From contig OX597830.1 of NCBI GenBank assembly GCA_951406725.2, forward strand, positions 558,001 through 622,000: DNA of 64,000 nucleotides. Direction: 5' to 3'. Below the pieces are notes generated by a model, which saw only the letters and a list, made by a program, of their open reading frames with translations, ran no database searches and was not told where the DNA came from. Positions 305-64,000 of the stretch are shown piece after piece (the stretch's first letter is position 1; each line of letters opens with the position of its first letter). The DNA is from Octopus vulgaris. Its lineage: Eukaryota. A program made the translations under genes and the position numbers.

Positions 305-709
305 GTAGAATACATCGACCCCAGTGGGGAAGAGCGTACTTAACTTATGAACTGGCGAATTCACTCGACCCCAATACTCAACCAGTGCTTATTTTATCGA
401 CGCCGAAACGATGCAACGCAAAGTCAACCACGGTTGAATTTGAACTCAGGAGGTATATGTAGAAGTGCCGCCAAAGCACGTTTGTCCGAAGTCCTAACCA
501 TTCTACCACTCGCTGCTTTCGTTAAACTAAATCCTTTCCACTATAGATACAAAGTCCCAAGTTTTGGGAGAGAGTACAAGTCGATTACTTAATTTATCAA
601 CTCCCGAAAGGATGACAGGCAAAGTTGACCTCAGCAGAATTTGAACTCAGAAGGTATAGGTAGAAGAAATACCCCCAAAGCATTTTTGTCCGAAATGCTA
701 ACGATTCTC
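305..709 (-). mobile_element. Tandem degenerate fragments of tRNA-derived SINE family A
   Basis: Repeated ATCGACCCCA...AAAGTCAACC/AAAGTTGACC...AATTTGAACTCAG blocks, homologous to the better copy at 710-945. Confidence 0.7.
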
Positions 710-945
710 ATTTCTTTATTGCCCGCAAGGGGCCAAACATAGAGGGGGGTCAAACATGGATTGAGACAAAGGGATTAAGTCAATTACATCGACCTCAGTG
801 TGTAACTGGTACTTAATTAATCGACCCCGAAAGGATGAAAGGCAAAGTCGACCTCGGCTGAATTTGAACTCAGAACGCAGCGGCAGACGAGATACCACGA
901 AGCAGTTCACCCTGTGTGCTAACGATTCTGCCTGCTCGCTGCCTT
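710..945 (-). mobile_element. SINE family A, near full length (tRNA head, CTTTCATCCTTTCGGGGTCGAT central domain, GCCCCTTG..GG.AATAAAGAAAT tail)
   Basis: Minus strand reads AGGCAGAATCGTTAGC (A-box-like) ... GAGTTCAAATTC (B-box-like) ... GCCTTTCATCCTTTCGGGGTCGAT ... GGCCCCTTGCGGGCAATAAAGAAAT; many copies elsewhere in the window. Confidence 0.85.
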
Positions 946-2194
946 CGATAGACTAATTAATGACAATAACTTATCTATTTAGTCCTAATACGTTTTCAGA
1001 GATTCGAGCGTGAATACCTGAATGCTGTTCTTTGTTAAGAAGACATATCTTTAAAAAAAAAACCCAGAAAAAAGGAGGTGTTTGTCGATGAAAAAAATAA
1101 CTACGATCAGACACTCACGTTTGAATTGGCCAGAACGAATAAAGACGGAATAAATACATTATTGTTTGAACTACCACTGTTTTTTATGCATCTCATGTAT
1201 TATTATTTGAATAATGTAATGTTAAAGAGAAAATATCTATAAAATTCTAAACTGGTAAAACTAGCGATAGTCGGTGTCGATGACAAACAAAGACAATATA
1301 TTCCCTGAAATTTATTGGTTCAAGTTTTGAGTAGAAAAACGGATTCTCACTATAAACAAATATTTTGTTCAATAATTTTCTTTTTAACAACCACCACTAA
1401 ATTTTTAATGTTTTTCAAGAATCTCACAAAACTGCAACAATTGTGAAACTGGCTGTCTCCATTTTTTAACAATCTTGAAATAGATTAATCCTAATCTATA
1501 ATAAACATTTGTGGACAATCACTAGATTTTAACAAACATTTTCACAGGTAATAGACAGAGTAACAGTCTTTTTATACGACACTAGTTTTTGATAATTATG
1601 TTACAAATGATAGCGAGATTTTAACGATCTATTTTGTAGACCACCTCTTGAATTTGACACACGCGTATGCAATCACCTGTTTCATCAATATTTTTCACAG
1701 GTTATAGCCAGATTCTGGGCCATCAGTAATTTTTAAGAAATTTTTCTATAAACCATTATTATTTTCTAACATTTTTGTTACTACTCCTTTTACAAATCAT
1801 GGCTCGTTTTTAATAATCTTTTTACAGACCATAACTTTCACACTTCAACCAACATATTTCCACTATCATATTTCTGTCTTTTATCATTTCTGCTCTCCGT
1901 TATCCTGTCTCGTTTCTCCTTATTCACACTAAATTCTAGAATTATCTTTGTATGGCATTTTTTTGATTTCACATGATTCCATAACATTTAGTGTTTTTTG
2001 AGGTTTCATCAACGCATTTCATAGGATTTATAAACATTAGAAAGAAATTCAATTTTATTAGTTTTCGCTATCAGCAAATTGAATAACATTTTGAAAATTT
2101 CAATTTTTTAATAAATAATTTTATTCACTCACCAGCTTTCTACTCCATGAGTTCATTATATTTGTTGATGATGCAGCTGCTGCTAATATTCTTC

Positions 2195-5101: not shown

Positions 5102-5362
5102 GGGGCACCACCTGCCCCAAAGCGGAGGTACGCAGATGTTGTGCGCGTCACAAACAGCCAACATGATGTTGTCGAAAGAGCAGCTGCTGAGCAACAAACT
5201 TTTTTGTGCATGGCACAAAAGATTGTACAGCAGCTGACCTGGCTTCATCAAACCCAAGCCCGCAGGTGGGACTACCCACTATATACCAGACCACCACAGC
5301 AAACAGACACAGGATGGACACCGCCGGCAACAACGTACACCTCACCTCGATACTCCTACTGA
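5102..5362 (+). pseudogene. C-terminal remnant of LINE ORF1, overlapping ORF2
   Basis: Open frame from the microsatellite junction, GAPPAPKRRYADVVRV...QQTFLC...; YAxVV-type motif is common in non-LTR ORF1; no start codon. Confidence 0.6.
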
Positions 5363-8310
5363 ACATCAGAGGACTGCAAACACTCAGTAACAGGACAAAG
5401 ATCCCATTCCTGAGAGACTTTGTTGCATGCAATCAAGCCATATGCATAGCACTTACAGAAACGCACCTGAAACCGGACATAGCAGATGCGGAGTTACACA
5501 TACCACAGTATGCCGTACTACGGACCGGCAGGAAAGAAAGGAGTCATGGAGGTGTTGCTATGTACATCCGTGAGGACCTCACACCCCAGGTCCTCTTGTC
5601 ATACTCAAACTCGGTGTGTGACACACTAATTGTACATATTAGGCAACTTGATGTAGTTGTGTGTGCTACATATCGCCCTCCAGATGCCCCAAGCCATGTG
5701 GGCAAGTTTGAAGACTGCCTTATAAAAATAGAAGAAATTCTAACCACATTAGAACAACACATAGGTGTGCTTCTTATGGGAGACTTCAATCTGCCCAATG
5801 TCAGATGGCCCGAGGGCCTTTCTCTCCCAGGAATGACAAGATGTGAACGAGGACAGGCGAGGTCCCTCCTGAACCTCACCAACACCCTGTACATGGAGCA
5901 GGTAATACTCCAACCAACCAGGGCAGGTAACACACTGGATCTCTGCTTCACAAATGACATGGATCTCATCCATAATGTGAAAGTGACACCGACACTACTC
6001 TCGGATCACAACATGATAGAGCTGACCATGTACGGGCCAAAAGAGAGCACGGACATGCAGCCTACAAGAAACCCTCAAAATCTTTCCAGCTTGAACTACC
6101 ATAAGGCAAACTGGAAACAAATTGAGAAAGAGATCCTCAAACAAAACTGGCCTAAATGTCTCTCCTCGCCAGACATCGACGTGAAACTTCAACAATTCAT
6201 GTCTGTAATGCAAGCCATATGCTACAAATGTGTCCCAGAGAGAAAGGCCACTGTACACAAGAACAAAATCCCCAGAGAGAGGAAAATTTTAATGAGACGG
6301 CGTACGAAATTTTCAAATCGCCTAAACAAACAGATTGAAAGCAGTGAAAAGTCCCGCCTAAAAATAAAACTGTTGGAAATCGAAAAATGTCTGCAACTCT
6401 CCCATGAAAAAGAAAGAGCAGACAAAGAAGCCTGGGCTATAGAAAACATAAAATCTAACCCCAGAGCTTTCTACAGGTATGCCAAAGAAACAGCTACAGT
6501 GCACTGTAGAATAGGGCCACTCCTCGAAAAGGATGGCACACTTACAGGAAAACCAATGAGGGTAAGTGAAATACTGAATGAGCAATTCAAGAGTGTTTTC
6601 ACTCCACCCCTTGGGCATCTCCAAATCACCAATCCAACTGACTTTTTTACCACTGCAGATATAAAATCAGAGGCGGCGACGATAGATTACATCGATATAA
6701 AGGAAGACGATGTAACCAAGGCTATAGATGAAATGAAAACAGACTCAGCTACTGGCCCCGATGGATTCCCGGCAATCCTCCTAAAAGCATGTAAGAGAGT
6801 CCTAGCAAGACCACTGCAGTTCCTCTTTCAGAGCTTCCTTGCAGCTGGCAAACTTCCAGGAAAACTGAAGGAAGGTAAAATATGCCCCATTCATAAAGGA
6901 GGTAGCAGAGCGGAAGCCAAGAACTATAGACCTATCTCTCTGACCTCACACATCAGCAAGGTCATGGAACGAATAGTCAGAAGGAAGCTGATCACCTTCC
7001 TTGAAGAGAATGACTTGCTGCCCGACACCCAACATAGTTTCCGACCAGGGAGAAGCTGTTTAACTCAGCTCCTACAACACTATGACTGGGTGCTGAAACG
7101 GCTGCTCAACCACTCAAATGTGGAAGTGATATATCTCGACTTTGCAAAGGCCTTTGATAAAGTCGATCATGGAATGATATGTCACAAACTGCGTGATCTC
7201 AACATAGTTGGAAAACTGGGAGAATGGCTTCATGACTTTCTGAAGGATAGAAGTCAGGTGGTGGTAGCCAATGGGGCCACCTCCATTAACACACAAATAG
7301 TGAGCGGTGTTCCGCAGGGCACTGTTCTGGGACCACTACTGTTCATAATGGCCCTCTCAGACATGCCCTCAGCCACGCAGAGAGCCACGATCACAAGTTA
7401 TGCAGATGATACAAAAGTTTCACAGGCAATACAGAACCCTGAGGACACTAAACACCTGCAATGTGAGCTGGACGAAATATACAAGTGGGCTGAAAAGAAT
7501 AGCATGCAGTTCAATGCTGGAAAGTTTCAAGCTTTATACTATCAGCATGCAAAACTGAATGCAATACCCAATGAATACACTGGACCCGGAGGGATTGCAA
7601 TCCCAGAGGCACAATCAGTGCGTGACCTGGGTATTCACATGAGTGATGACGCGACCTTTCATGTACATGTTGCTAAACTGACAATGAAATGTAGACGGCT
7701 GGCTGGCTGGATTCTTAGAACCTTTAGAACAAGAGAACAAGAAACCATGATGGTCCTCTGGAAGACACTTGTCCTAAGCCACTTTGACTATTGCTCTCAG
7801 CTATGGTCACCATCCAGTGTCAAGTTGATCACAGAACTTGAGGCGATCCAACGAAGCTACACAAAGAAGATAGCCTCTATGCAGAATGTAAGCTACTGGG
7901 AAAGACTCAAGAGATTAAAATTATATTCCCTGGAGCGTAGGCGGGAAAGATATGCCATAATATACATCTGGAAGATCCTGGAGGGAAGTGTCCTGAACTT
8001 TGGCATCGAGAGTTACGCAAATGCCAGAACTGGGCGCCACTGCGTGGTGCCTAGGACTCCAAACCTGCCATCAAGATGTAGGACAAGATACTGTGATAGC
8101 CTGGGCTTCCGAGGCCCACAGCTCTTCAATATCCTCCCGAAGAACCTGAGAGACCTGCATGGGGTGGATACAGATGTCTTTAAAATGAAGCTGGATCTCT
8201 TCCTGTCAGGTGTCCCAGATGAACCAACTTCACGGCAGGAGGGGCAGATGAGGGCAGCTGCATCGAACTCTCTCATGCACCAAATAGCAGCTGCTAGAAA
8301 GCCTCCATGA
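5206..8310 (+). CDS. LINE ORF2: apurinic-like endonuclease plus reverse transcriptase (first ATG at 5314)
   Basis: Uninterrupted 1034 aa. APE motifs LLNIRGL, LTETHL, GGVAMY, YRPP, GDFNLP, LDL, SDH; RT motifs [41 protein letters not shown]; CR1-type C-terminus YWERLK.L.LYSLERRR. Confidence 0.96.
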   Translation: MHGTKDCTAADLASSNPSPQVGLPTIYQTTTANRHRMDTAGNNVHLTSILLLNIRGLQTLSNRTKIPFLRDFVACNQAICIALTETHLKPDIADAELHIPQYAVLRTGRKERSHGGVAMYIREDLTPQVLLSYSNSVCDTLIVHIRQLDVVVCATYRPPDAPSHVGKFEDCLIKIEEILTTLEQHIGVLLMGDFNLPNVRWPEGLSLPGMTRCERGQARSLLNLTNTLYMEQVILQPTRAGNTLDLCFTNDMDLIHNVKVTPTLLSDHNMIELTMYGPKESTDMQPTRNPQNLSSLNYHKANWKQIEKEILKQNWPKCLSSPDIDVKLQQFMSVMQAICYKCVPERKATVHKNKIPRERKILMRRRTKFSNRLNKQIESSEKSRLKIKLLEIEKCLQLSHEKERADKEAWAIENIKSNPRAFYRYAKETATVHCRIGPLLEKDGTLTGKPMRVSEILNEQFKSVFTPPLGHLQITNPTDFFTTADIKSEAATIDYIDIKEDDVTKAIDEMKTDSATGPDGFPAILLKACKRVLARPLQFLFQSFLAAGKLPGKLKEGKICPIHKGGSRAEAKNYRPISLTSHISKVMERIVRRKLITFLEENDLLPDTQHSFRPGRSCLTQLLQHYDWVLKRLLNHSNVEVIYLDFAKAFDKVDHGMICHKLRDLNIVGKLGEWLHDFLKDRSQVVVANGATSINTQIVSGVPQGTVLGPLLFIMALSDMPSATQRATITSYADDTKVSQAIQNPEDTKHLQCELDEIYKWAEKNSMQFNAGKFQALYYQHAKLNAIPNEYTGPGGIAIPEAQSVRDLGIHMSDDATFHVHVAKLTMKCRRLAGWILRTFRTREQETMMVLWKTLVLSHFDYCSQLWSPSSVKLITELEAIQRSYTKKIASMQNVSYWERLKRLKLYSLERRRERYAIIYIWKILEGSVLNFGIESYANARTGRHCVVPRTPNLPSRCRTRYCDSLGFRGPQLFNILPKNLRDLHGVDTDVFKMKLDLFLSGVPDEPTSRQEGQMRAAASNSLMHQIAAARKPP

Positions 8311-13070: not shown

Positions 13071-13905
13071 AATAATATATGCGTGTGTACTTGTATCAAT
13101 CAAATTTATAATTAAAGAATTTAGGTTTAGAACGTGGGCATTAAATGCAGTATCCAATCCTTGTTTCAAGGTAAGTCCCAGGTACTGTGCCTGCACAGCA
13201 CGTTAACCACTTATGGCTACCAGGCATCATCAGCGATACGATGCGTTCGTCGTTGGACCTATGTCCGGAATTCCGAGGTGCCCGTTGGGTATATTTTAAT
13301 TGATTGATGCGGAAGACGGAGTTTAAGTAGAAGTTGTATTTAGCCCAACAGTCGTTTCGGCTACCTTCTGCACTGCTCCCTAGTTGATGGGGAACGATGT
13401 AATGACATCGGACGCATGGCACAGTTCAGGGAACCACATCAGACAACATGATATCCTTCAAAATGTATAAGATTTACATTTTGTCCCAAGTTAGATGCTG
13501 GTGGTATTATGTAGTTGCTAGTAAATTACACCCATTGGTGAAGTGAGGATACTTGTAGTCAGGAAGTGGTTGATAACAACAGGAAATACAAAGAATCTAA
13601 TGTAAATGGGTGTGTGTGCTTATACTCGGGGTCAGGACATTTGATGGTTGGCTTTGACAGTCAAGCATGACGGCGTGGTGAAGAATTTGGTGGGAATGTG
13701 ATGTCCACCTTTAGACTTGATGGCTGCTTACAGCTACATACACACAGGCACACGCTCATACACATATATACATACATATTTGCGTGTGTGCATGTATATA
13801 TACACACACACATACGTGCACTCACCCCACCCCCACACACATTTATATACATACATACATACATACATACATACACACGCGTACATACACGCAAGTATAT
13901 ATCTG

Positions 13906-14050
13906 TTTCTTTATTACCTACAAGGGGCTAAACATAGAGGGGACAGATAAGGACAGACAGACGGATTAAGTCGATTACATCGCCCCAAGTGCGTAATTGT
14001 TACTTGATTTATCGACCCCGAAAGGATGAAAGGCAAAGTCGACCTCGGCC
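13906..14050 (-). mobile_element. SINE family A, 3' half
   Basis: Minus strand central domain plus tail AGCCCCTTGTAGGTAATAAAGAAA. Confidence 0.85.
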
Positions 14051-24519: not shown

Positions 24520-24560
<41 letters not shown>

Positions 24561-24566
<6 letters not shown>

Positions 24567-24964
24567 GTAAGTAGCTTGCTAACCAGCCACATGGTTCCGG
24601 GTTCAGTCCCACTGCGTGGCATCTTGGGCAAGTGTCTTCTGCTATAGCCCCGGGCCAACCAATGCCTTGTGAGTGGATTTGGTAGACGGAAACTGAAAGA
24701 AGCCTGTCGTATATATGTATATATATATATATGTATGTGTGTGTATGTTTGTGTGTCAGTGTTTGTCCCCCTAGCATTGCTTGACAACCGATGCTGGTGT
24801 TTTTACGTCCCCGTCAACTAGCGGTTCGGCAAAAGAGACCGATAGAATAAGTACTGGGCTTACAAAGAATAGGTTCCGGGGTTGATTTGCTCGACTAAAG
24901 GCGGTGCTCCAGCATGGCCGCAGTCAAATGACTGAAACAAATAAAAGAGTAAAGAGTAAAAGAG
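24561..24964 (+). mobile_element. SINE family C (tRNA head, CORE-like CTTGGGCAAGT block, internal microsatellite, CR1-LINE-derived tail)
   Basis: TGTGTGGTAAG (A box), GGTTCAGTCCC (B box), CTTGGGCAAGTG, tail GGCGGTGCTCCAGCATGGCCGCAG...CTGAAAC. Confidence 0.87.
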
Positions 24965-27103: not shown

Positions 27104-27496
27104 AGACGCAGCTGTGGCTGGGTAGTAAGAAGCTTGCTTCCAAACGACATGGTTCATGCTTCAGTCCCACTGCGTGGCACCTTGGGCAAGTGTCTTCTAC
27201 TATAGCCTCGGGACGACCAAAGCAGTGTTAGTAGATTTGTGGTAGACGGAAACGAAAAGAAGCCTGTCGTATATATATCTATATATATACTCTTACTCTT
27301 TACTCTTTTACTTGTTTCAGTCATTTGACTGCGGCCATGCTGGAGCATCGCCTTTAGTCGAGCAAATCGACCCCGGAACTTATTCTTTGTAAGCCTATTC
27401 TATCGGTCTCTTTTGCCGAACCGCTAAGTGACGGGGACGTAAACACACCAGCATCGGTTATCAAGCAATGCTAGGGGGACAAACACAGACACACAA

Positions 27497-27543
<47 letters not shown>

Positions 27544-27911
27544 TACGACAGGCTTCTTTCAGTTTCCGTCCACCAAATCCACTCACAAGGCATTGGTCGG
27601 CCCGGGGCTATAGCAGAAGACACTTGCCCAAGATGCCACGCAGTGGGACTGAACCCGGAACCATGTGGTTGGTTAGCAAGCTACTTACCACACAGCCACT
27701 CCTGCGCCTATATATATATATATATATATATATAATCTGTGTGTCTGTCTGTGTGTGTATTTGTCCCCACCACCACTTGAAACCAATGTTGGTTTGTTTA
27801 CGTCCCCATAACCTACTTATTCTATCAAGAGACTGATAGAATAAATACCAGGCTTAAAACATACAACCTGGGGTCGATTTATTCAACTAAAAATTCTAAG
27901 CGGTGCCCCAG
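27104..27911 (+). mobile_element. Older SINE C copy split into 27104-27288 and about 27736-27911 by a nested insertion
   Basis: 5' half up to the internal (TA)n; 3' half (TACGTCCCC...GATAGAATAAATACC...GGGGTCGATTT...GCGGTGCCCCAG) resumes after the nested copy. Confidence 0.75.
27289..27709 (-). mobile_element. Full-length SINE C, inverted, nested in the older copy
   Basis: Minus strand GGCGCAGGAGTGGCTGTGTGGTAAG...tail GTAAAAGAGTAAAGAGTAAGAG; very similar to 24561-24964. Confidence 0.88.
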
Positions 27912-42724: not shown

Positions 42725-42942
42725 CTGGCAGAAACGTTAACACGCCGGGCGAAATGATTTGCGATATTTCGTCTGCCGCTACGTTCTGAGTTCAAATTCC
42801 GCCGAGGTCGATTTTGCCTTTCATCCTTTCGGGGTCGATCAAATAAGTACCAGTTACGCACTGGGGTCGATGTAATCGACTTAATCCATTTGTCTGTCCT
42901 TGTTTGTCCCTTCTGTGTTTAGCCCCTTGTGTGTAGTAAAGA

Positions 42943-42945
<3 letters not shown>
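42725..42945 (+). mobile_element. SINE family A, near full length, followed by (AAT)n
   Basis: CTGGCAGAAACGTTAAC...GAGTTCAAATTCC...CTTTCATCCTTTCGGGGTCGAT...AGCCCCTTGTGTGTAGTAAAGAAAT. Confidence 0.87.
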
Positions 42946-55284: not shown

Positions 55285-56157
55285 CGTGCGTTGTGTGTGA
55301 GAATGTACGTTGTGTGTGTGTGTGAAACTGCAGTGTGTGTGCGTGTTGTGTTATGTGTGTGACTGTGCGTTGCGAGTGTGTATGTGTGTGTGGGGGGATG
55401 TACGTTTAGCGTGTTTGTCTGTGACTGTTCGTTATGCATTCCTGTGTGTGTGAATGCGTTGTGTGTACGTATGTTTGTGAAAGATGTTATGTGAGTGTGT
55501 GTAAATGTGTGTTGCCAATGTGTATGTGTGTATCAATGTACGTTGTGTGTGTGTGTGCATTTGTATGAATGACATAAATCATTCGCTATTGCTGACGACG
55601 TAAAGCCAATCGCTCTAATTGGCGACGAATCTCAAAGTTTAGCTGATGAGATGAGATTATGTTCGGAGATGTTGTGTTGCGCGGTTGCTGTGATATCCTG
55701 CACAGAAATAAAGTAACAAGATTGCATTTAGAGAGCAACATTACAAAAGCTTCCGTAAAGGATTTGGTAGAATCCTTAAAGTGTGTGAATTGTGATATTT
55801 AGTCACAGTTAGTTACGTTTCAAGTTCAAATCCGGTCCACATCATCTTCGAAAAGCATTATTCACATATCGATTAATTAAAGTAGCACTCAAATATTGGA
55901 TTCGATTTTCATCGACTAACTTACCCGTCAACTAAAATGTCGATGTAGTAATGTTGGAAATACAAATCAGTTGGAAAACTGGTCTAATAGGTAACAATGA
56001 AACATTGATGAATTCTTTTGTCAACCAATAAGCCTTGCCTGGGGCCAATGACAATAATATTTTTTGTTGAGTTATAAGTTTTGAATAATATAAATTAGTA
56101 TTGTAAAAATAACTAAAAGGAAATTGTATTTCACCATTTAATGATATTATTATCTTC

Positions 56158-56327
56158 TTAGAGGCATTTCGCCGGTCTTTACGTTCTGAGTTCAAATTCC
56201 ACCGAGGTCTAATTTCCCTTTTCATCATTTCGGGGTCGATGAAATGAGTACCAGTTACGCACTGGGGTTGTTATAATCGACTAGCCCCTCCTACAAAATT
56301 TCAGGCCTTGTGCCTTTAGTAGAAAGG

Positions 56328-56328
<1 letters not shown>
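56158..56328 (+). mobile_element. SINE family A with the alternative tail (AAAATTTCAGGCCTTGTGCCTTTAGTAGAAAGG)
   Basis: Central domain followed by a different tail, then (ATT)n. Confidence 0.8.
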
Positions 56329-56389
<61 letters not shown>

Positions 56390-58756: not shown

Positions 58757-60608
58757 ATGATTAACAGCAAGGATTATAAAGAAGACTGCTGAAAACTTGT
58801 AGATATCTATTGCTACAGGTAGTAACGCGCTGCCCACATAATCCCTGCCAAGAAAAAGACTGAAGCTGAGACAAACCAAAATAATAAAATTCATTTGAAA
58901 ATTTCAGCACAAGACTAGCCACTTTGTGTTGTTATTGGCTCACATTGCCCTCAATGGGTAACTGATACATTTTTTATTGATCCTAAAATGATGAAAGACA
59001 ACGTTGCCGTCTTTGGGATTTGAATTAGGAACAGAAACAATGGGAACAGCTCCTGCCTAATAATCAAACAATCTGCCATCTCCGACCAACCAATGAAAAT
59101 AATAAGAATATTAAGAATGGAAAGGTGGAGGGAAGGAGAGAAATGTCAAAAAAAAAAAGAAATGTAAAAGAGGGTGAACAAGAAAGTGTGAAAAAAGATG
59201 GAAAAAAAGAGTATTGAAGATGAAAAACATGAAAGACAAAGAAAAGACGTGAATGAAATTGATGTAATCAATGAAGAATGACGAACAAAAGCCGTAAATA
59301 CACGAAAAATAAGAATGAAGACAACGAAGACAATGAGTAGCAATGTAAGAAGATTGTTCGTTCAGTCACCTCTTGTTGCACTTTATACAACATCACTGAT
59401 CTAGTTTCCTTTTTAACAATATGACATAAATAAACGGCATTTTACTTAGTTCTGATGAATTAACAGGGAAAAATGTGATTCATTAACTGTGTATGTGTTT
59501 GTGACGGTCCAACCGAGGTCATCCGTATGTCTTGACACCGTCTCGGAAATCTAATATCTCTTTCTTTACTTATGGCATATGTTAATGGCACATTAACAAT
59601 GTAAACATCGTCTCTCTTTCAATGGCCATAACCATTTCATCTCAATATTGATATGGCCAAACGTTTTTGTTCTCAAGTTTACTACTGGCGAACACATTGA
59701 TCGACATTTATAGAATCTTTGCCAATAGCTGCCCTGAAAATAATTTTTATTTTCGAAATTTTCATAATACACTTTCAGAATACAGCGTCTACATTAGTTT
59801 TGAAATATTTCTGTTATAAACAATGGGAATGATTAGATTGAATGTATAAATAAATATATTAATTAAATAAATCATTAATGTTGTAAATATAAATACGCTA
59901 CTATTTCTATGAGTTCCTTTCCGGAAATATTTCAAAATGAAATTTCCGGCTTTCTGTTCTTAGCTTGGACAGTCGATTTGTTAAAGGTATGAGAAAGTTT
60001 GATAGCTTTTTTTTTCTTTTTTACTCAACTCTGATTTAGCTGCTCGATGACCAAACGTATATCATTTAAAAAAGTAACCTACTGCCTGCTGCTGTCCTCC
60101 ATTTACACTTTTTAACACTTTCAACAACATTTCCACGACCATCATCATTATTATCATCATTGTAGTAACTAACGTTACCACCATCATCATCATCGGCAGC
60201 GGTAGATTTAACTCTGTAAGATCTTGAAAACACACACATGGGGCATGAATGGTTTTAGGGGTGCCAACTCTGTTGCAAATTTATGCGGAATAAGGATAAT
60301 CTTATCCTTTGATCCTCGCAAAACTTGGAGACTGAAAAAGGGATCCTGCTCGCTGCCATTTCCTCTGATTGAGGAAATAAATCGCAAACAAAGCATTTTC
60401 AGTGATGTTACCTTTGCAAATATTTCAGGGAAACGAAAATAAAATATAAGTAGAATATAAAGACATTAAGTTCTTTATTTGGTGTCAATAATAAATATGA
60501 AGATGGTCGTAAATAAAACGTACTTCTCGCTGGCTCTTAAATACTTCGCGGATAAGCGAAATGTTGGCGTATATACGAGTATATGTTTGTACGTGTATAA
60601 GCATACAT

Positions 60609-60680
<72 letters not shown>

Positions 60681-60785
60681 GTCTATGTATGTATACCTAT
60701 ATATCTGTATATCTATCTATATATTTATATATATATATATATATACGAAAAAACCCTCCAGGCTACATCCCGAAAATTCATTTCT

Positions 60786-61531
60786 TTGCCGAATTTCTAC
60801 AATGTTTACGGCGATTCGTTTTTATATCTTGATTTTTTATTTTTCATGCAATTTACGCATGCTTGCACGCTTGGTGAACACAGTTCACGTCAAACAGCTG
60901 ACTGAGTAAAGTTCACTATTCAATGCATGGGATAAGGCCTCAACAAACACATTATCGATTTTTGCACTTGCAAGATGAATTTCGGAACAGAAATATATCA
61001 TTCTCATTTTCCATATTTCTCCCCCTATTTGTCTCTGATGACGGAATATTCCATACTTGGGGATATCCCAGAAACAGTTGTAAGATTTTGAATTTCTTCC
61101 TATAATAATATTATATATGTTCCCCTTCCCTCAATGTTTGATGCCCTGTTTCACAATTATATATATATATATATATATAAAACTCAACTTGCATGTCTGT
61201 ATTGTATCTGTGTGTGTGTCGGTGTGTTTAACTTCCCGGCACATCTCTTCCTAGCCAACAAATCGTAGAACCACCAAAAATGGGTCACTTAAAGTTTAGG
61301 CGAATGAAAATTGAACTGCGCTATTTCTGTTCCGAAATTCATCTTGCAAGTGCAAAAATCGATAATGTGTTTGTTTAGGCCTTATCCCATGCATTGAATA
61401 GTGAACTTTACTCAGTCAGCTGTTTGACGTGAACTGTGTTCACCACGAGTGCAAGCATGCGTAAATTGCACGAAAAATAAAAAATCAAGAAATAAAAACG
61501 AATCGCCGTAAACATTGTAGAAATTCGGCAA
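60786..61531. repeat. Inverted repeat with 210-bp arms (60786-60995 / 61322-61531), about 6 mismatches by eye
   Basis: TTGCCGAATTTCTACAATGTTTACGGCGATTCG...TTCGGAACAGAAATA versus TATTTCTGTTCCGAA...CGAATCGCCGTAAACATTGTAGAAATTCGGCAA. Confidence 0.95.
61031..61087 (+). ncRNA. Minimal type I hammerhead-like motif inside the inverted-repeat spacer
   Basis: GTCT-CTGATGA-c-GGAATATTCC-atactt-GGGGATATCC-ca-GAAA-CAGTTG-TA-AGAT; near-palindromic stem III ACAGTTGT, GUA triplet; base of stem II imperfect. Confidence 0.62.
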
Positions 61532-63281
61532 CGAATTTTGAAGGAGTCGGTCGTGTTTTTTTACGCTCGTAAAATTCGGTAAAAAAGAACAAAAGGCGTT
61601 GTTGTTGTTGTGGAAATTCTGAACGGCGTTGACGCGGTTTCGCGTTTCGCTCGTTCAGCGCGTTACACTTTTTCTGTTTTGGCGGCCGTTTTCGGTCTGT
61701 CAGACAGAAGGAAATGGACTATGAGTCTCTAACAGACTTGTCCACGACGGATGAGGAACTGGAACAGGCAATTGCAGTGAAGCTGATGGAGGAAAAGGCT
61801 GGAGTTTTTGAGTCTTTATCAGACTTGCCTATGTCTGAGAAGGAGCTAGAAATGGCAGCAAGGAAATTGGAAGACAAGCTGAGTTATACCTATGCCGGTG
61901 TAACCAAGAAGGCGGAAGAGAAAGGGGTCGACATGGCCAAGTTGCCAAGTTACCAGAAATACATGAAAAAGGAAAGCGGTGAGGTGGAACTATCACCGAC
62001 ACCCAGGAGAAAGGAATGGTATGATAAGAGGACCATTATTTACAGGGTGTTCGCAAACGAAAGGAAGAGGGTAGAAGTTGTAACCATGGAATGGATAGAG
62101 GAAGCCCTGCGAAGAACTGAGGAGGAAATAAATTTTCTGACTCGAGGATCCAAGTACGGGACCGTAGTTGTGCACTTTAAAACTGAATCGGCAGCGAGGA
62201 AGATGGCAGCGAAGGCGGTGAAGTCGGAAAAGGTAACACTGTTACCTACGTATTTAAACAGGAGGATTACACGAATAAGGGTGGAGGGAGTGCCACCAAA
62301 CGTGGAGGCAGAATGGATTGTGGCGGCTGTGATCAGCGGCCACGAGGACGAAGTGGATATTCTCCATGCCTCGGTTAAGTCCGAGGGCTGGAGAGGCGTA
62401 ACAGTGGAGCTGAACGTACAGGCAGAGACCGAGGTACTGGTGGACCTGACGGAAAGCATCAGACTGGGAGAAGTGATCATGAGAGTGTGGGTGGAGGGCA
62501 GGGCTCCACGCTGTTACAAGTGTGGCCTGAGGGGTCACATAAGAGCCTTCTGCCCTCCCCCAGGGAAAGAAATGGATTCCGAACCAGAGAGAGAAGCAGA
62601 AACCAGAGGAGAAGGAAACAGAGGAAGAGAATACACAGAAATGGAAGGAAGCTGGAAGTAAGAGGAAGAGAAGAATATGTGGAAAAAAAGAAAATAATAT
62701 GGAACTCCAATCTACCCCAAAACCTCCCACACCCTCTGAGTCCCACCCTATCCATGCAGACATTGAACCCACCCGCTCCCCACCACCAACAAAACAAAAA
62801 AAAAAAAAGAATACACACACACAAGATATTGAAATCGAACCCAGGCCGTACATTTGTACTATGACTGAACAGAGGGAAGTTAAAAGTCTAATGGAAGAGT
62901 ATAAACGGTATGATGTTGGAGAGACTAGGTATGCTGTGATTGAAAAGAAGAACATAGGTGAGTTTATGGGGAGGTGTGAAAGGGAGAATTGGGAGGTGAA
63001 AGATATAAGAATGAGCGATGAATTCGTGGAAAATATGAATGAGTATTTCGGAGTAAGAATGGATATGGAATTTATTCGTATTGGCAAAGAACATTCAAGT
63101 GACTATGAAAAACAAAGGACAGGTAAGTGATGCTGACGGACGGGGCCGTTGGTATCGCTTTCATTTTATCATTTTTCGTTTAACAATACATGTTCATAAA
63201 GTTTAATTATAATGTTCTATGTCCCCATGTTTTGTTATGTCCGCCATTCTTCGTAGCCCCTTAGTGGGTAATAAAGAAATC
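61512..63281 (+). mobile_element. 1770-bp unit 1 of a tandem ORF1-only non-LTR-like element (first 20 bp are a candidate target duplication)
   Basis: Repeats from 63282; about 200-nt leader, one ORF1-like coding region, 150-nt 3' UTR ending AGCCCCTTAGTGGGTAATAAAGAAATC; no RT or endonuclease motifs. Confidence 0.85.
61714..63130 (+). CDS. Tx1/L1-type ORF1 (gag-like) protein of about 470 aa, split by one frameshift into 61714-62661 and a frame ending at 63130
   Basis: RRM-like RITRIRVEGVPPNVEAEWIV and zinc knuckle CYKCGLRGHIRAFC (CX2CX4HX4C); the +1 frame is open from about 62543 and reads QKPEEKETEEENTQKWKEAGSKRKRR...MELQSTPKPP... to TGA at 63130. Confidence 0.8.
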
Positions 63282-64000
63282 ACATTGTAGAAATTCGGCA
63301 ACGAATTTTGAAGGAGTCGGTCGTGTTTTTTTACGCTCGTAAAATTCGGTAAAAAAGAACAAAAGGCGTTGTTGTTGTTGTGGAAATTCTGAACGGCGTT
63401 GACGCGGTTTCGCGTTTCGCTCGTTCAGCGCGTTACACTTTTTCTGTTTTGGCGGCCGTTTTCGGTCTGTCAGACAGAAGGAAATGGACTATGAGTCTCT
63501 AACAGACTTGTCCACGACAGATGAGGAACTGGAACAGGCAATTGCAGTGAAGCTGATGGAGAAAAGGCTGGAGTTTTCGAGTCTTTATCAGACTTGCCTA
63601 TGTCTGAGAAGGAGCTAGAAATGGCAGCAAGGAAATTGGAAGACAAGCTGAGTTATACCTATGCCGGTGTAACCAAGAAGGCGGAAGAGAAAGGGGTCGA
63701 CATGGCCAAGTTGCCAAGTTACCAGAAATACATGAAAAAGGAAAGCGGTGAGGTGGAACTATCACCGACACCCAGGAGAAAAGAATGGTATGATAAGAGG
63801 ACCATTGTTTACAGGGTGTTCGCAAACGAAAGGAAGAGGGTAGAAGTTGTAACCATGGAATGGATAGAGGAAGCCCTGCGAAGAACTGAGGAGGAAATAA
63901 ATTTTCTGACTCGAGGATCCAAGTACGGGACCGTAGTTGTGCACTTTAAAAGTGAATCTGCAGCGAGGAAGATGGCAGCGAAGGCGGTGAAGTCGGAAAA
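63282..64000 (+). mobile_element. Unit 2 of the tandem ORF1-only element (runs off the window)
   Basis: Leader identical to unit 1; coding part from ATG 63484 has 6 substitutions and a 1-nt deletion near 63560. Confidence 0.9.

Follow-up and report, generated by a model that had tools for sequence, protein, structure and literature searches.

Non-autonomous LINEs that code for ORF1 only are represented by HAL1 (derived from L1), HeT-A (Jockey) and Ag-Sponge (CR1), as summarized in passages of PMC5753468 and PMC5786205. Residence of retroelements inside DNA transposons is also described. Tx1L occupies a fixed site in the DNA transposon Tx1D of Xenopus laevis (PMC1950540 and PMC4494074, both in excerpt). 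SINEU-3 and Tx1-Mar of crocodilians sit in Mariner-N4_AMi; their tandems sandwich a 16-bp target-site duplication (TSD) and are read as sequential insertions. For SINEU-3, 313 of 347 copies are located at the target, and transposon targeting is assigned where more than 20% of genomic copies are flanked by the target (excerpts of PMC4494074).

The locus considered here belongs to a stretch of 64,000 nucleotides of Octopus vulgaris DNA (the window) and contains a small DNA transposon with an element lodged close to one of its ends, as two copies arranged head-to-tail. This arrangement is already known from frogs and crocodilians. Its ingredients are all known as well: ORF1-only LINE derivatives, retroelements within DNA transposons, and tandems around a duplication.

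As far as the excerpts of the cited papers go, the octopus unit shares with HAL1, HeT-A and Ag-Sponge a single ORF1 protein, the lack of ORF2 and a LINE-type 3' end; it differs from them in its mollusc host, in its type I ORF1 (two RRMs, one knuckle) and in being nested in the arm of a miniature inverted-repeat transposable element (MITE). The likeness to SINEU-3 consists in a non-autonomous retroelement residing in a non-autonomous DNA transposon, with tandems around a TSD. SINEU-3, however, is snRNA-derived and non-coding and its targeting has been counted, whereas the octopus element codes for ORF1 and is known as an arm insertion from one locus. Tx1L likewise is a LINE-type element inside a DNA transposon, but it is autonomous, with a tested sequence-specific endonuclease, and the octopus unit carries no endonuclease.

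Anatomy of the Repeat Unit

The repeat unit spans 1770 bp and is repeated head-to-tail; one full copy and 719 bp of the next lie in the window (Table 1). The initial annotation, made from the letters alone, spoke of an array; the tandem stands, with two units observed and the second of them incomplete. It also placed the element at 61532-63281. The start is retained, and the 3' end is corrected to 63280, because three junction contigs break there and two of three SINE tails stop on the same T (the third has C).

Table 1. Features of the octopus locus (positions in the window)
Feature	Positions	Strand	Basis
(TA)n tract, adjoins left tip of host inverted-repeat element	60603..60745	.	sequence
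MITE-like left arm, uninterrupted (empty form)	60746..61011	-	inverted-repeat match and deep contig cover in two runs
40-bp arm tip, absent from right arm within the window; predicted downstream of last unit	60746..60785	-	sequence and contig depth
20-mer of empty arm	60786..60805	-	exact match
Non-coding interior of MITE-like element; differs in other copies	61012..61305	.	multi-contig loose ends at 61023 and 61119
Right arm, broken 40 bp short of tip	61306..61531	+	inverted-repeat match
Upstream 20-mer copy, target side of 5' junction	61512..61531	+	exact match
Unit 1 (1749 bp), non-autonomous element of LINE type coding for ORF1 only	61532..63280	+	sequence, junction contigs, tail
ORF1 N-terminal part, 315 aa: two RRM-like domains and one CCHC knuckle	61714..62661	+	homologues, predicted fold
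Second open frame, probably C-terminal ORF1	62543..63130	+	profile match E 0.0016
27-nt 3' tail containing AATAAA	63254..63280	+	common to three SINE copies
Single extra C, particular to this junction	63281	+	absent from junction contigs breaking at 63280
Downstream 20-mer copy between units, candidate TSD	63282..63301	+	exact match
Unit 2, matching unit 1 at 99%, with one base deleted in the early part of ORF1; ends at window edge	63302..64000	+	sequence comparison

Judging from its sequence, the unit resembles HAL1, HeT-A and Ag-Sponge in being non-autonomous: it codes for ORF1 only and depends on the enzyme of a partner. This assignment follows from two RRM folds with a CCHC knuckle, from the absence of any reverse transcriptase (RT) or endonuclease family match for either frame, and from the distance of 150 bp between the last stop and the tail. 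The ORF1-only build and the dependence on a partner had been passed over in the initial annotation. Terminal repeats were not found in the unit. Its 3' end is of the retroposon type: the tail with AATAAA is common to three SINE copies, and the end lies at 63280 in all three junction contigs listed.

An ORF2 with endonuclease and RT, as expected of Tx1, is lacking in the element, which could be at most a non-autonomous derivative. Tx1 identity is not established, because the unit has no ORF2 and ORF1 proteins of type I occur in several clades. A Tx1 partner is plausible, since O. vulgaris has 80 L1-Tx1 families, 13 of them recently active, according to a part of PMC13282606. A search of its supplement finds no mention of HAL1, and the excerpts of PMC4758252, PMC11203168 and PMC9115989 hold nothing on the octopus element.

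Rfam and tRNA scans gave no matches. Searches by exact DNA patterns returned nothing from metagenome contigs or prokaryote genomes; among viruses one locus was returned, over about 22 bases only, and it is taken as chance.

ORF1 Protein

The 315-aa ORF1 has 362 relatives at E<=0.001. Twenty relatives were looked up, and all 12 with species names are Octopus or Argonauta proteins. A model built from a 24-sequence alignment (pLDDT 82.8) contains two folds resembling RRMs, spanning approximately aa 96-181 and 182-264, with middling Z of 6-8, and all 15 Foldseek matches at E<=0.001 are RRM proteins (tandem RRM). The CCHC knuckle lies at aa 267-280, and zf-CCHC is present in 19 of the 24 alignment members at E<=5. 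On this predicted structure, the layout is that of a type I LINE ORF1 (two RRMs and a knuckle). Passages in PMC4120745 report this layout from several clades (I, Jockey, R1, L2 and others), and a part of PMC5203782 describes it as consistent with Tx1 in non-mammalian animals.

Identity as an LTR element with a gag protein was considered and rejected: the protein has RRM folds, the unit has no terminal repeats, and the sequence matches to solved structures cover the knuckle only. Locus searches with the ORF1 alignment returned three and four loci, which match the zinc knuckle only. Atlas neighbours of ORF1 include ZCCHC3-domain clusters at 0.88-0.90 (a lead only), and RBD_ZCCHC3 is absent among the 25 of 33 Pfam families listed for the 24 members.

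The second frame probably continues ORF1 beyond a break of the reading frame located within about 62545-62660. Its profile match supports this weakly, and a C-terminal profile built from five relatives gave no match to it. Longer fused ORF1-ORF2 proteins were not met among 7996 candidates, in a search of low power, and a single-protein word search found none among 2039.

In public gene models (P0030, P0067, P0090 and P0135; three of the four are named Octopus) a protein of this ORF1 family is fused to segments of integrase, LDL-receptor, C2H2 or WD40 type. These are probably chimeric predictions over nested elements. Proteins P0128-P0269 form a large group of ORF1 proteins related to this one, encoded on long eukaryotic contigs from ENA.

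Host Inverted-Repeat Element

The 20-mer ACATTGTAGAAATTCGGCAA occurs exactly at 61512-61531 (+), 63282-63301 (+) and 60786-60805 (-) and nowhere else in the 64-kb window, as had been noted from the start; the expected number of one extra exact copy by chance in 64 kb is 3e-7. The inverted-repeat arms extend over 60782-61011 and 61306-61535, with five mismatches in 210 positions across 61322-61531. On the right, exact complementarity stops at 61531, which is the end of the 20-mer. On the left, the arm continues for 40 bp past the 20-mer (AGAAATGAATTTTCGGG...TTTTTTCG) into the (TA)n tract. The initial reading of a LINE-type element inserted in one arm of an inverted-repeat element, with the left arm as its empty form, is therefore supported, the interrupted arm breaking off 40 bp from the tip. 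Its reservation about the exact boundary is also real: GAATTTT follows one base after the 20-mer in the element and six bases (AGAAAT) after it in the left arm.

The host has long terminal inverted repeats, is non-coding and occurs in many copies, and is thus MITE-like; location of the octopus unit inside a multi-copy DNA transposon is observed for this one locus. The left tip of the host abuts (TA)n, and the right tip falls outside the window. Twelve contigs of one public run (X8, introduced below) carry a common flank before 60743 that the window lacks, so that in the organism of that run the true end of the host may lie further out, or the host may itself be nested.

GAATTTT could pair with GAAATTC within the 20-mer, with a folding z of -1.4, which is not significant; folding of the tail and of the junction is not significant either. 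Similarity between the 5' UTR of the element and the arm tip reaches no significance (7.8% of 500 shuffles). A near copy of part of the target is present in the 5' UTR at 61569-61582 (TAAAATTCGGTAA vs TAGAAATTCGGCAA); it is equalled in 45% of 300 shuffles and is likewise not significant.

Abundance in Public Sequencing Runs

Part of the stretch is contained in 20 of 24 listed public runs, under six organism labels; the comparison of 60742-63301 took in four of the 24. Two of these are raw-read runs (X21 and X22), with 2 and 9 matching reads of 12.9 million each, too few to be informative. The other two consist of contigs: 8627 of 40.6 million match in X1, and 1934 of 36.2 million in X8, which bears another organism label; both runs cover all 30 bins. 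Summed depth over the element is 170,000-568,000 in X1 and 4,800-41,000 in X8 (last bin 1,800), figures that are not a copy number, and the depth of four long divergent X1 contigs is 52-68. Host and element are plainly both repeated families.

The bin of the arm tip (60742-60827) has a summed depth of 407,581 in X1 and 166,148 in X8. Because it is deep in both runs, the continuation of the left arm is a family feature rather than a local flank, which supports the empty-site reading. Cover of the element without a rise towards its 3' end hints that most copies are full length. Cover stays deep across the stop codon, and the 12 of 465 loose ends listed include no divergent flank in its vicinity.

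Shared 3' Tail

The 27-nt tail of the unit is shared with repeat copies at 42920-42945 (+), 13905-13930 (-) and 710-735 (-), which we take to be SINEs from their build and from the familiar repeats of octopus. A search for the tail with at most five edits gives four matches in the window and none in each of 20 shuffles. Possession of one tail by a SINE subfamily and an ORF1-only element points to a common partner LINE, as far as can be read from sequence.

Downstream, one of the three SINEs runs into (AAT)n, one into AGATAT and one into the head of a further SINE; none of the three copies is in the MITE arm. Clear flanking duplications were not seen at these three copies. Several downstream flanks, over about five junctions, start with AGA(A/T), which suggests that the enzyme may have a loose preference for sites starting in this way.

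Junctions and Candidate Target Duplication

In three X1 contigs the 3' end of the element (63280) runs on into another copy. In the first, the end is followed by the last 13-14 bases of the 20-mer (from 61519) and then by the element start. The second passes from 63280 to 61560 with A between and the third from 63280 to 62998 with AGAAATA between, both with 0 target bases. Head-to-tail junctions thus contain 20 (in the window), 13, 0 and 0 target bases. The X1 junctions listed are rare (depth 54 and 32 in the two that have a value), and only joints inside 60742-63301 could be listed; the common junction falls in very short contigs. No listed contig leads from the 3' end into the arm tip, but such a joint could not appear, since the compared stretch ends at 63301 and high-copy contigs are short, and its absence carries no weight. 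Because all three break at 63280, the C at 63281 is specific to the window junction. The junction with 13-14 target bases shows that arm sequence precedes the 5' end of the element at a second, distinct junction.

Long target duplications have precedent in Tx1L, where the duplication is about 23 bp. A TSD of 20 bp, proposed initially, is plausible and gives the best reading of this locus, the 20-mer standing before unit 1 and between the units, with the far junction beyond the window. Spacers of 13, 0 and 0 and the absence of the three SINEs from the arm speak against it as a fixed rule of the family.

The junctions bear on whether the family is strongly or strictly site-specific, as Tx1L is, with the array produced by successive independent insertions at a regenerated target. 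This could be so, and we consider it doubtful. The window junction has the form that such insertions predict, the second junction again puts arm sequence at the 5' end, and none of the 12 of 465 loose ends listed is a different flank, shared by several contigs, at 61532 or 63280. Recently active L1-Tx1 families are reported in O. vulgaris (13 in the part of PMC13282606 cited above), and by analogy the SINEU-3 tandems around a TSD in Mariner-N4_AMi could serve as precedent (PMC4494074, in excerpt). Against it, the spacers of 20, 13, 0 and 0 indicate no fixed duplication, none of the three tail-sharing SINEs is at the arm site, and the alleles shared by the units (C at 61875 and two more X1-minor alleles, below) are not what random draws from the pool would give.

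The copy of the 20-mer at 63282 could instead be a 5' leader, if transcription started inside the arm and the RT, on reaching the 5' end of one RNA, switched to the 3' end of another, giving head-to-tail copies with leaders of variable length. This reading is rather unlikely. Joining of the 3' end to 61519, 61560 and 62998 resembles template jumps in which the point of truncation varies and one or several bases are added, the tail-sharing SINE at about 710 likewise forms a head-to-tail dimer with one extra base, and transcription from the flanking Mariner together with template jumps is discussed for SINEU in passages of PMC4494074. However, the three X1 junctions are rare and of the only kind that could be listed, they may have arisen afterwards by deletion or by insertion into a different copy, and the first unit would still require insertion into the arm.

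Relationship of the Two Units

Unit 2 differs from unit 1 at 7 of 720 positions. Comparison with the family is based on the 40 of 98 variant rows listed, 14 of which fall in the overlap of the units. At 62013, 62038 and 62190 the base of unit 2 accounts for 95-100% of the depth of each run, and that of unit 1 is rare; the four further differences are not among the family variants listed. Because unit 2 carries the family-majority base at the three sites where unit 1 is rare, the units are two real copies. A false duplicate created in assembly would account for the 99% identity and for frame breaks within purine runs, where long-read errors are common. It is very improbable in view of the three sites and of head-to-tail joints in independent contigs.

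At 61875 both units have C, and G makes up 100% of depth in both runs; at three listed sites, this one included, both units differ from the X1 majority. A recent source common to both units is thereby suggested, on one clean site and with contigs that drop rare variants. Either duplication in place or two insertions derived from a single source copy would agree with this, and better than copies drawn independently from the pool.

A single insertion with a 20-bp duplication could have been followed by tandem duplication at the DNA level (unequal crossover or repair between the 20-mers), a reading that can be held only tentatively. It predicts the same junction, and it explains the rare 61875 allele in both units with later divergence (three rare alleles in unit 1 and four differences outside the listed variants). 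On the other side, 20 bp is short homology for a first unequal crossover, the family also makes head-to-tail joints by other routes, and the shared allele could stem from one source copy (40 of 98 variant rows being listed). The initial annotation had favoured successive insertion over unequal crossover; this choice is not established, because crossover yields an identical junction and a rare allele is common to the units. If one insertion with its 20-bp duplication were then duplicated at the DNA level, the sequence after the array would also be the same, so that sequence cannot separate the two routes.

Proposed Origin of the Locus

The preferred explanation, which as a whole we regard as fairly probable, would lead from the observed anatomy, protein fold, multi-copy state and shared tail to the present locus through the following inferred steps. 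The unit would be a non-LTR retroelement present in many copies in octopus, non-autonomous, coding for ORF1 only and built like HAL1. Its RNA would be copied in trans by the enzyme of a partner LINE that recognises the 27-nt tail and also moves the SINE family. One copy would have entered the MITE arm through target-primed reverse transcription, at a distance of 40 bp from its tip. Staggered nicks 20 bp apart could produce the duplicated 20-mer, the far copy of which would lie beyond the window, and one extra C would be left at the 3' joint. The enzyme probably prefers sites starting with AGA(A/T), as the few junctions suggest, and the arm would then be a hot spot and not the sole target.

Unit 2 would come from the same source lineage as unit 1. 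Its formation by re-insertion at the regenerated site is a real possibility. DNA-level duplication is a somewhat slighter one, and a template jump or 5' leader is about equally questionable; an artefact is highly unlikely.

If targeting is real, transposon targeting would extend to molluscs and to a protein-coding non-autonomous element, and the tail shared with a dispersed SINE would offer a natural comparison of target choice among passengers of one enzyme. If it is not, the locus would be an ordinary nested insertion with tandem duplication. A bolder proposal, which we rate as rather unlikely, is an octopus family of ORF1-only "half-Tx1" elements that target one site 40 bp from the MITE arm tip, form arrays there, are transcribed from the arm and share their partner enzyme with an abundant untargeted SINE. 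Such a family, if it exists, would combine in a single mollusc lineage the targeting of transposons with a coding capacity reduced to ORF1, and it would allow one to test whether its own ORF1 protein or its RNA leader gives the targeting that the SINE lacks. The literature searched contains no description of an octopus family of this kind; Repbase, Dfam and the O. vulgaris Zenodo repeat library, which were outside the search, may hold an entry.

Other Repeats in the Window

An intact endonuclease-RT ORF of 1034 aa is located at 5206-8310 (+) and belongs to a LINE of another kind with a (CAAT)n tail. It was considered as the partner enzyme and rejected, as it does not end in the shared 27-nt tail.

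The SINE body that carries this tail is also found elsewhere (e.g., near 56154-56330) with a different tail. A SINE dimer at 586-960 (-) is arranged head-to-tail, the tail being followed by one extra G and the head of the next SINE, with 13 bases shared exactly upstream and downstream; it parallels the tandem of the ORF1-only element. A further inverted pair of 247 bp (24521-24767 and 27488-27734, 90% complementary, 2.7 kb apart) looks like two opposite copies of another short repeat.
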